Virus record (IMG/VR): IMGVR_UViG_3300037634_006988
Span: 1 to 64,000 of that record
Source: a virus
Lineage: Duplodnaviria; Caudoviricetes
Reading direction: 5' to 3' (one strand)
DNA: 64,000 nucleotides
The translations under genes and the position numbers were made by a program. Positions within the stretch are counted from its first letter, which is position 1; each line of letters begins with the position of its first letter. Positions 16,003 through 17,286 of this stretch are shown here, piece by piece. Under the pieces are notes generated by a model. That model saw only the letters and a program-made list of their open reading frames with translations. It was not told the DNA's origin and did no database searches.

Positions 16003-16011
16003 ATTATAGCA
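16003..16011 (-). promoter_or_regulatory. host sigma70-type extended -10 promoter (TGcTATAAT) for the Mre11-Rad50 gene, probably leaderless
   Basis: Perfect TGnTATAAT ending 8 nt before the ATG at 15994; no SD; -35 poor. Confidence 0.6.
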
Positions 16012-16051
16012 TAGTTTTGGGGGATTTTTGAGAAGGAACGGTTAGTTTCAT
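16004..16051 (-). pseudogene. truncated cassette stub MKLTVPSQKSPKTML
   Basis: AAACAAAATGAAACTAACC is identical to the start region of 16663..16953, then homology stops abruptly. Confidence 0.65.
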
Positions 16052-16056
16052 TTTGT

Positions 16057-16323
16057 TTACCTGTCATTGCGTGCTTCTGCGATTTTGGTTAGTGCCGTAT
16101 TGGGAACCCATTCGTTTTTCCATTTGTCTTCTTCATAATAAATCAAGCTAGCAAAGCCCCCACGGCTTTTTTCCAAAATTCTGCCGACCAGGGGTGGATT
16201 TTTTGGTCCTTGATACACTTTCACCTGATCGCCAACTTCAAAAACTTCTGATTCTTCTTCACCCAAAACTCTGCCAATCTCTTCTTTAATTAATTGTTGT
16301 AGTTTTGATTTGGTTAGTTTCAT
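16057..16323 (-). CDS. signal-tagged cassette protein with KOW/SH3-like barrel
   Basis: MKLTKSKLQQLIKEE leader; FEVGDQVKVYQGP...VGRILE...EWVPNTAL. Confidence 0.7.
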   Translation of the reverse strand: MKLTKSKLQQLIKEEIGRVLGEEESEVFEVGDQVKVYQGPKNPPLVGRILEKSRGGFASLIYYEEDKWKNEWVPNTALTKIAEARNDR

Positions 16324-16661
16324 TTTGGTTGCCTAGAAGCAAGATCGCTCAGCCACGTATTATAACCCTTACTAACAGGATCTGAAGCTGGAGCTTCTTC
16401 TGGTTGTGCCTCTCCTTTTTGTTGTCTTCCGAGTTTATAATTTTCATTCATGCTTTTCAGTACGTTACTTATCATATCATAATGATGATAATCGCCAATG
16501 AGTTCCAGTTTTTCTAATAAATTATCCGTCATCTCTAATATATTTGTCTCTTCTTTGCCTATTGATACCATCTCGACTCTTTGTGAATGTGGCACTTCAC
16601 CATGAACTTCATCGAGTTCTTCTTTAATAATTTTTTGAAGTTGTGATTTGGTTAGTTTCAA
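16320..16661 (-). CDS. signal-tagged cassette protein (TTG start)
   Basis: MKLTKSQLQKIIKEE leader. Confidence 0.7.
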   Translation of the reverse strand: MKLTKSQLQKIIKEELDEVHGEVPHSQRVEMVSIGKEETNILEMTDNLLEKLELIGDYHHYDMISNVLKSMNENYKLGRQQKGEAQPEEAPASDPVSKGYNTWLSDLASRQPK

Positions 16662-16662
16662 T

Positions 16663-16953
16663 TTATAATCCTCTCTCTTCGGGACCTGCTTTTGATGTAG
16701 TCAACACACCTTCATATGGAGATCCGTCTTTGTTTACTAAATTATCATTTTCGTCCCAATAAGCAATAACTTCTTTTTTTACTAAATCTTCAAAAGCTGG
16801 TCGAAGACCAACAGGGAACACACCTTCATCATCGGCAAACTTCTTATCTGCCAATGTTTCATGTTCATCGCTGTACCAATCATCATCGCCTTCTTTTATA
16901 TTATTAATCTCTTCTTTAATAAGATTTTGTAGTTGTGATTTGGTTAGTTTCAT
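16663..16953 (-). CDS. signal-tagged acidic cassette protein
   Basis: MKLTKSQLQNLIKEE leader; 20 D/E versus 8 K/R in the 75 aa after IKE. Confidence 0.7.
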   Translation of the reverse strand: MKLTKSQLQNLIKEEINNIKEGDDDWYSDEHETLADKKFADDEGVFPVGLRPAFEDLVKKEVIAYWDENDNLVNKDGSPYEGVLTTSKAGPEERGL

Positions 16954-17028
16954 TTTGTTTGTTCCTTAATCGTCATCGTCATCTCCGGGATGACCACCGT
17001 AACGATTATAATATTCTGGGTTGTAATC

Positions 17029-17286
17029 TTATTCATCATATGGAATATTCCACATTTCCATTATCCCTTGGAGAGGTTTGGCGCGTGGGTATTCCCGCTG
17101 GAGTGCTTGAACAAGTTCTTCCAAGGCCTTTCTCGTATCGCCTTTAAAATGGGCAACAATGGTATCAGCCACACTTGAGCTTAAAGGCATCCAATCATAC
17201 GCTTCATTTACTGGTTCGTGGTTTTCTTTTAATCCGCCAAGCTCCTCTTTAATTATTTGTTGTAGTTTTGATTTTGTTAGTTTCAT
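17029..17286 (-). CDS. signal-tagged cassette protein (possible premature stop; frame continues to 16966)
   Basis: MKLTKSKLQQIIKEE leader, GGGG SD. Confidence 0.7.
   Translation of the reverse strand: MKLTKSKLQQIIKEELGGLKENHEPVNEAYDWMPLSSSVADTIVAHFKGDTRKALEELVQALQREYPRAKPLQGIMEMWNIPYDE

Follow-up and report, generated by a model that had tools for sequence, protein, structure and literature searches.

The stretch of DNA analysed here (hereafter the window) comprises the first 64 kb of the 87.9-kb virus contig G000 (IMG/VR record IMGVR_UViG_3300037634_006988, positions 1 to 64,000). Between a DnaG-type primase gene and a fused Mre11-Rad50 (SbcD-SbcC-like) gene it contains a tandem array of four small genes (cassettes c1–c4), each of which begins with a nearly identical leader followed by unrelated cargo. 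Comparison of this interval among related loci showed that it is a turnover hot spot: cassettes have been replaced, stacked, deleted and moved between lineages, and their turnover in nature is fast. The joints use short stretches of identity, namely (i) the leader DNA, (ii) a few bases before the leader, sometimes together with the primase 3′ end and a promoter motif, and (iii) an acidic linker behind the leader. We consider it rather probable that the locus is a late-transcribed, hypervariable array of ORFans, in which exchange by general recombination is aided by the leader DNA and the encoded tag serves as a capsid-targeting propeptide.

The tagged array and its turnover among relatives

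The products of all four cassettes (Table 1) open with the pattern MKLTKS[KQ]LQ..[IL]IKEE, which corresponds to approximately 45 nt of leader DNA. A 29-nt leader consensus has four exact matches in the window, compared with 0.00 expected from shuffled sequences, and the cargo parts show no similarity to each other. These results bear out the first-pass annotation of the DNA, which described four consecutive genes with near-identical starts and unrelated cargo. Its statement that the genes are joined by ATGA or 1-nt junctions holds for c3/c4 and c2/c3, respectively, but not for c1 and c2, which are separated by 75 nt. This gap is the c1 frame continuing in-frame after its TAA codon. Since the c1 homologue in the related locus L152 reads on beyond the position of the stop, c1 may be a recently truncated gene.

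An assembly chimera formed at the repeated leaders was ruled out by an ENA contig (L161) that is 100% identical over 6258 nt and includes all four genes as well as a truncated fifth leader copy (the stub). Because this contig is independent and identical, the array is no assembly artefact. Outside the array, at least eight more genes of the 87.9-kb contig carry the leader or a variant of it.

Table 1. Positions of the array, its flanks and the other features discussed in the text.
Feature	Position	Strand	Description or match
Cassette c1	17029..17286	-	85 aa; leader MKLTKSKLQQIIKEEL, then ORFan cargo
Cassette c2	16663..16953	-	96 aa
Cassette c3	16320..16661	-	113 aa; TTG start, 1 nt past the c2 stop
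Cassette c4	16057..16323	-	88 aa; ATGA overlap with c3; leader, then GRVLGEEE and a small beta-rich domain
In-frame continuation of c1 past its TAA	16966..17028	-	20 codons, acidic tail
Stub	16004..16058	-	spacer and ATGAAACTAACC, then unrelated sequence
DnaG-type primase	17298..18209	-	conserved left flank of the array
Fused Mre11-Rad50 (SbcD-SbcC-like) gene	12851..15994	-	conserved right flank of the array
CTATTTA, candidate late promoter at the array head	17319..17325	-	inside the last primase codons, 39 nt upstream of the c1 ATG
TGnTATAAT, extended -10 box of the Mre11-Rad50 promoter	16003..16011	-	8 nt before the ATG
Second leader-cassette hot spot	11625..12404	-	leader genes starting at 12404 and 11987
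Further genes with the leader or a variant	starts 12404, 11987, 11603, 8486, 2429; internal 10588; outside the window 73617, 82163		
T4 gp20-type portal	4200..6173	-	PF07230 1.5e-77
Prohead core protease, T4 gp21 family (Peptidase_S77)	1159..1761	-	PF03420 3e-28; phrog_207 5.7e-54
223-aa protein	1758..2429	-	starts with leader variant MRISKERFKRIILEE; encoded just upstream of the protease

The leader corresponds to an amphipathic helix of 15–16 residues. It is charged and lacks a hydrophobic core, which rules out a Sec or Tat signal. Database searches related the cargos to no known family. Pfam and PHROGs gave nothing above threshold for the cassettes of the array (all four), for five other leader proteins or for ten cassettes of relatives, and c3 proved to be an ORFan, found in only two clusters in a search of 5.8 billion proteins. 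Exact look-ups of c2 and c4 returned no record, although contig L161 encodes both. When the leader was compared by tblastn with 50,697 deposited phage records, a single weak match, in a metagenomic megaphage, was obtained, and a DNA search of the locus against the same records detected no relative. No paper was found in a full-text literature search with the leader peptide, and positions 15800–17500 had no match in Rfam.

A model of c4 built by AlphaFold2 without an alignment is of low confidence (predicted local distance difference test, pLDDT, of 58) and is usable for secondary structure only; it shows a helix at residues 5–20 followed by five strands. Outside the window, at positions 84684–87770 of the contig, lie approximately 14 translationally coupled mini-genes (59–93 aa) that form one small beta-barrel-like family. 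A hidden Markov model of this SH3-like family matched c4 alone among the cassettes, with a non-significant E value (0.03–0.04), which is a hint and not a finding.

The interval between the primase and Mre11-Rad50 genes was recovered in approximately 50 loci, via the primase (scans of viral and metagenomic sequences) and via an identical neighbouring 63-aa protein. In the loci recovered via the primase, which contain 0–6 genes, its length lies between -7 and 2250 nt; in L152, which contains eight, it reaches approximately 2.9 kb. In total, 36 distinct arrays were distinguished, comprising 73 cassettes and 40 cargo families (the full leader is present in 47 of 75 ORFs), and the families turn up in differing combinations, orders and positions. 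Different arrays were found even in pairs with nearly identical primase DNA: the window and L071 (99.2%), L090 and L104 (99.5%), L072 and L073 (99.3%), and L083 and L084 (99.2%).

The closest relatives of the window (L071, L151, L153, L154 and L156) have flanks that are 97.6–98.7% identical to its own. Arrays of the L071 type, found in five contigs from different samples, consist of six cassettes of 94, 97, 88, 96 or 78, 113 and 231 aa. By comparison, the window contains c1 alone where these arrays contain three other leader cassettes; c2 and c3 are common to both (c3 with 99% identity), and c4 has the same leader but a different cargo, the one in the L071-type arrays being 231 aa long. Window-type and L152-type arrays co-occur in one sample (ERZ27249223). 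The comparison across relatives thus favours the postulated gain and loss of cargos without an integrase, since arrays differ even with flanks that are 97.6–99.5% identical.

The genome has a second hot spot of this kind (Table 1). Here, a 61-nt repeat consisting of the leader and 17 nt upstream of it (positions 12355–12415 and 11938–11998; 60/61 identical) flanks a cargo, and at this site other leader genes are present in genomes that share 98.6% identity as far as position 12401. This second hypervariable locus (window 9600–12415) is situated downstream of two small membrane (holin-like) genes.

Position of the joints and the proposed role of leader DNA

Identity between the window and L071 runs from the primase through the first leader to codon 19, where it stops. 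Because homology extends to the left through the primase, this boundary is uninformative as to the crossover point. More informative is c2, which lies in a 703-nt block shared with L151. Eight of the 12 mismatches in this block fall within the first 34 nt of the leader (p ~1.6e-8), and 33 nt of this tract, as they read in L151, are identical to the leader of the second cassette of L151 itself. The mismatches mark a conversion or crossover within leader DNA. In L071, L153 and L154, c2 also differs by a 54-nt in-frame deletion between CGATGATGA repeats (window 16840–16900; L071 4700–4720). By leader variant and presence of this deletion, three haplotypes of c2 are present in the population.

The second informative case is c4, in which the window and L071 are identical up to codon 24 and then different up to the stub. 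A patch of 224 nt, made up of the c4 cargo, its 3′ junction and 12 nt at the start of the stub, is 95.5% identical to L152, compared with 73–85% in the flanks of L152. In L152, it corresponds to the C-terminal domain of a 184-aa gene and to the beginning of the leader gene that follows. Its left border is a 12-nt sequence, GGCGAAGAAGAA, situated in the acidic linker that follows the leader. Its right border, AACAAAATGAAACT(A/C)ACC, consists of leader DNA and belongs to the stub in the window and to a full leader in L152. A 6-nt patch that sets the window stub apart from those of L071 and L073 is what a joint inside the stub would leave.

In addition, the L071 array contains two internal duplicates of the primase 3′ end, the spacer and a leader (with 30 and 9 nt of the primase). 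Such duplicates are also present within the arrays of L001 (52 nt) and L084, and the longer of them take in the promoter motif. Such duplications are as expected from the stacking of different phages' alleles by unequal exchange. Since several events duplicated the primase 3′ end, promoter motif and leader together, the exchanged unit is larger than the leader alone. The earlier proposal that the leader DNA doubles as a recombination handle is thus sustained in part: at least two informative joints lie inside leader DNA, but the handles are short (12–60 nt), one joint is the 12-nt microhomology behind the leader, and the unit exceeds the leader.

Codon usage in the leaders was examined as well. 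In the four leaders of the window, 57 of 71 comparable codons are identical, versus 34.6 expected from codon usage, and the rare codon CTA (6% of Leu codons) occurs at the first Leu in every leader copy that has Leu at this position. Identical residues are specified by identical codons in 75.7% of cases within arrays and in 63.8% between arrays with different cargo, against approximately 45% expected from codon usage, so that the synonymous sites are not saturated. Codon identity within arrays (0.751) exceeded the permutation mean (0.646; p = 2e-4).

The joints could also be those of an ordinary hyperplastic region, shaped by random illegitimate recombination with selection for in-frame tagged products. 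The leader DNA would then be no preferred substrate, and joints would only seem to be bound to it because every cassette has a leader. The tract in c2 does not fit this account well, as it extends over only 34 nt, all within the leader, and has a neighbouring leader as its source; nor does the right edge of the c4 patch, which in both genomes falls inside the opening 12 nt of a leader, or the raised synonymous identity within the window and L071 arrays. Random joining would, for its part, also be expected to give left boundaries at +48 to +62 nt, and it accommodates the mapped joint at a 12-nt microhomology outside the leader, the differing points of the primase 3′ end at which the duplications begin (9, 30, 34 and 52 nt) and the use of a 9-nt repeat within the cargo in the c2 deletion. 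On balance, we consider it unlikely. In the leader-aided exchange that we favour, a general recombination system of the T4 type (UvsX/RecA and Mre11-Rad50, seen in complete relatives) would join the cassettes during mixed infections.

The suggestion that the flanking primase, RuvC-like and Mre11-Rad50 genes work specifically for the array found no support. All belong to the conserved core and are present also where the site is empty, and their adjacency is no evidence of a dedicated role because this synteny is conserved and is kept at the empty site.

The stub was recognized in the first-pass annotation as a truncated fifth leader copy before the Mre11-Rad50 promoter, and in this respect the annotation is correct: the sequence AAACAAAATGAAACTAACC at positions 16058–16040 is identical to 16960–16942. 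With its 5′ flank, the stub is nearest to the c3/c4 junction (21/23 identical). It opens a mini-ORF of 15 codons (16051–16004), whose stop codon lies inside the -10 box of the Mre11-Rad50 promoter. The idea of a recombination scar private to this genome had to be abandoned, since the stub is old and common to three lineages, being kept in the window, in the L071-type genomes and in L073 (in L071 and L073 with a variable patch of 6 nt). The primase and Mre11-Rad50 genes of L073 are separated by the stub alone, and L072, with primase DNA 99.3% identical to that of L073, has a full cassette in its place; a different 15-codon remnant is found in L002. The stub therefore appears to be a long-standing vestige of a cassette that lost its body, and it doubles as the empty-site form. 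After the loss of the cassette body, it would have acted as the right-hand partner in at least one swap.

A conserved partial site at the far end of the array, a single promoter at its head and the tendency of new cassettes to occupy the first position would also be features of an integron-like, site-specific system with an unrecognised recombinase. No tyrosine integrase (PF00589) was detected in contig G000 (48% complete) or in any of five relatives (0/5), three of which are at least 90% complete. The junctions are 0–12 nt long, no attC-like hairpins or inverted repeats were found at them in an inverted-repeat search, and the joints lie at differing positions. Because there is neither an integrase nor attC, the locus is not an integron, and a site-specific system of this kind is close to refuted.

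Transcription, phage type and the putative propeptide

The heptamer CTAWTTA occurs in 26 copies on the coding strand versus three on the other strand, and 15 copies are located no more than 70 nt upstream of gene starts. The first-pass annotation had named one of them as the promoter candidate heading the array, and the motif is indeed real and non-random. Genes preceded by it include those of the terminase, several large structural proteins and a holin-like protein, the array head and two other leader genes. By its likeness to the T4 late promoter TATAAATA, CTAWTTA is presumably a late promoter and represents a candidate late-promoter consensus for this uncultured clade. A scan for sigma-70 promoters and terminators inside the array revealed nothing above chance.

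The promoter of the Mre11-Rad50 gene (15992–16011) is of the sigma-70 type; its end is 8 nt from the ATG, and there is no ribosome-binding site. Relatives L001–L004 have the sequence TTGAC(T/A)-N17-TATAAT at the same distance from the ATG of this gene. This arrangement suggests that the Mre11-Rad50 mRNA is leaderless and that this property is conserved in relatives.

The window represents approximately half of the genome of an uncultured marine T4-like phage. Contig G000, with a CheckV completeness of approximately 48%, has a G+C content of 37% and carries almost every gene on the minus strand. Besides the portal and prohead protease listed in Table 1, it encodes a T4-like large terminase. A gp23-type capsid protein and a UvsX/RecA recombinase are each encoded by all five larger relatives (145–201 kb) recovered via the primase.

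Two further kinds of small protein were noted. Proteins with the motif GLG(N/S)VGSYQVSG are encoded between the protease/scaffold genes and the capsid gene (window 1–232; L150 3976–5230), with three tandem paralogues in relative G011. A conserved protein of approximately 140 aa, encoded after the protease gene (window 477–890; L150 5473–5895), has a leader-like helix start, MK..ELK..LKPLIKECIKE, and may belong to the tag family as a diverged member that occupies the scaffold position.

In T4, internal proteins carry a 10-residue capsid targeting sequence (CTS), which directs them to the prohead core and which gp21 cuts off after L/I-X-E (PMC9026906, PMC3012670, PMC12373910). Residues I12-K13-E14 are present in 47 of 47 leaders, positions 12–14 being part of the search pattern, and I12, E14 and E15 are invariant or nearly so in these 47, which is likewise partly enforced by the pattern. 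The I-K-E end fits, as a sequence-level match, the L/I-X-E cleavage motif of gp21 (PMC9026906). Leader variants also start proteins that adjoin the protease gene, on one side in the window (Table 1) and on both sides in G011. An S77 protease is present in 3/3 near-complete and 6/10 leader-bearing IMG/VR records, and the array is preceded by the strand-specific motif that also precedes structural genes; both observations favour the same reading. Taken together, the I-K-E end and the position of leader proteins beside the protease gene make a T4-style capsid-targeting propeptide the most likely function of the leader. The tag would take its cargo into the prohead core, where the gp21-family protease would remove it after I-K-E, and the cargos would be head-packaged, probably injected, fast-evolving accessory proteins.

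Several results weigh against the explanation proposed here. On the side of recombination, most left-hand boundaries are uninformative, as homology enters the first leader from the primase, and the c4 transfer between lineages could have run either way. Without the window and L071 arrays, the within-array excess of identical codons is not significant (0.676 versus 0.649; p = 0.22), and the synonymous conservation between arrays (64% versus 46%) may be due to selection for a translation start poor in G, there being almost no G before codon 14 of the leaders. On the side of the tag, no significant sequence similarity was detected between the leader and the T4 CTS, the leader being too short for statistics, and the two have a pattern alone in common (MK start, amphipathic, I-x-E end). 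Of 47 cargos, 41 are acidic (median isoelectric point 4.8), in contrast to the T4 internal proteins IPII and IPIII, which are basic. The counts for co-occurrence of the leader with an S77 protease carry no base-rate control, and no cultured phage with this leader was found among the 50,697 deposited phage records.

Some of these points would suit another account, in which the leader DNA is conserved for expression, as a G-poor, A/C-rich and unstructured start, and the peptide has some other role, e.g. in oligomerisation, chaperone docking or regulation. It would explain why the leaders are nearly G-free before codon 14 and why AAA, CAA, ATT and GAA are over-used even between unrelated arrays, and the acidic nature of the cargos, in contrast to the basic T4 internal proteins, likewise favours it. 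The rare CTA codon is, however, preferred to TTA and CTT, which are equally G-free and commoner. Mosaic leaders and junction duplications are left unexplained, and the protease motif at the leader end, the leader proteins beside the protease gene and the promoter motif in common with structural genes also speak against this account, which we regard as improbable.

A broader proposal, which we put forward tentatively as a possibility, is that in widespread marine T4-like phages one coding tag performs two jobs. The peptide would load the cargo into the head, and the DNA would act as a landing pad at which the recombination system of the phage itself captures, stacks and trades cargos, including single domains excised from larger genes, between co-infecting phages, so that injected effectors are exchanged as in-frame cassettes without a recombinase. 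If the tag is a head-loading signal, the arrays are the sign of a large and rapidly changing stock of unknown proteins, delivered into cells by marine phages as infection begins. The cargos would then be an obvious place to seek new anti-defence functions, and the tag could readily be used to pack foreign proteins into phage heads.

Comparison with known systems

In T-even phages, many unrelated proteins with such leaders are encoded in small variable loci (PMC9026906, PMC3012670, PMC12373910). The present locus resembles those for the internal proteins IPI, IPII, IPIII and Alt in three respects: (i) unrelated small proteins, here of 40 cargo families, share a short N-terminal leader ending in L/I-X-E, (ii) a gp21-family protease accompanies a T4-type head module (PF03420, PF07230; gp23 in 5/5 relatives), and (iii) the loci are small and hypervariable, with content that differs between close relatives. 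It departs from them in the length of the leader (15–16 versus 10 residues), which is not detectably similar, in arrays of up to eight genes, in cargos that are mostly acidic ORFans, and in some joints that map inside leader-coding DNA.

With integron arrays, the locus has in common promoterless tandem cassettes behind one promoter, a large common cassette pool and an empty-site form. Unlike integrons, it has no IntI and neither attC nor attI, and its joints are at no fixed position.

Its closest counterpart in print is PeSL-mediated shuffling, in which short conserved promoter/stem-loop elements flank ORFans and provide homology patches for the T4 recombination system, which needs <50 bp (Arbiol et al. 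2010, PMC2839356; Comeau et al. 2014, PMC4122927). The authors of these studies likewise draw the comparison with integrons (PMC2839356, PMC4122927). In both systems, near-identical phages differ by inserted, deleted or replaced ORFans, which a repeated conserved element flanks, and no integrase is involved. They differ in that a PeSL is an intergenic early promoter and stem-loop of approximately 100 bp, whereas here the genes abut (0–12 nt) with no stem-loops, and what is repeated is coding DNA, to which a late-promoter-like motif is sometimes added. What the present case adds is the population-level evidence of cassette exchange with mapped joints, including one case of domain capture, in which the C-terminal domain of a 184-aa protein is now a stand-alone tagged cassette. 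The mapped joints provide a natural example of how a short coding repeat can render exchange precise and in-frame without a dedicated recombinase, and they thereby extend the PeSL idea from regulatory to coding DNA.

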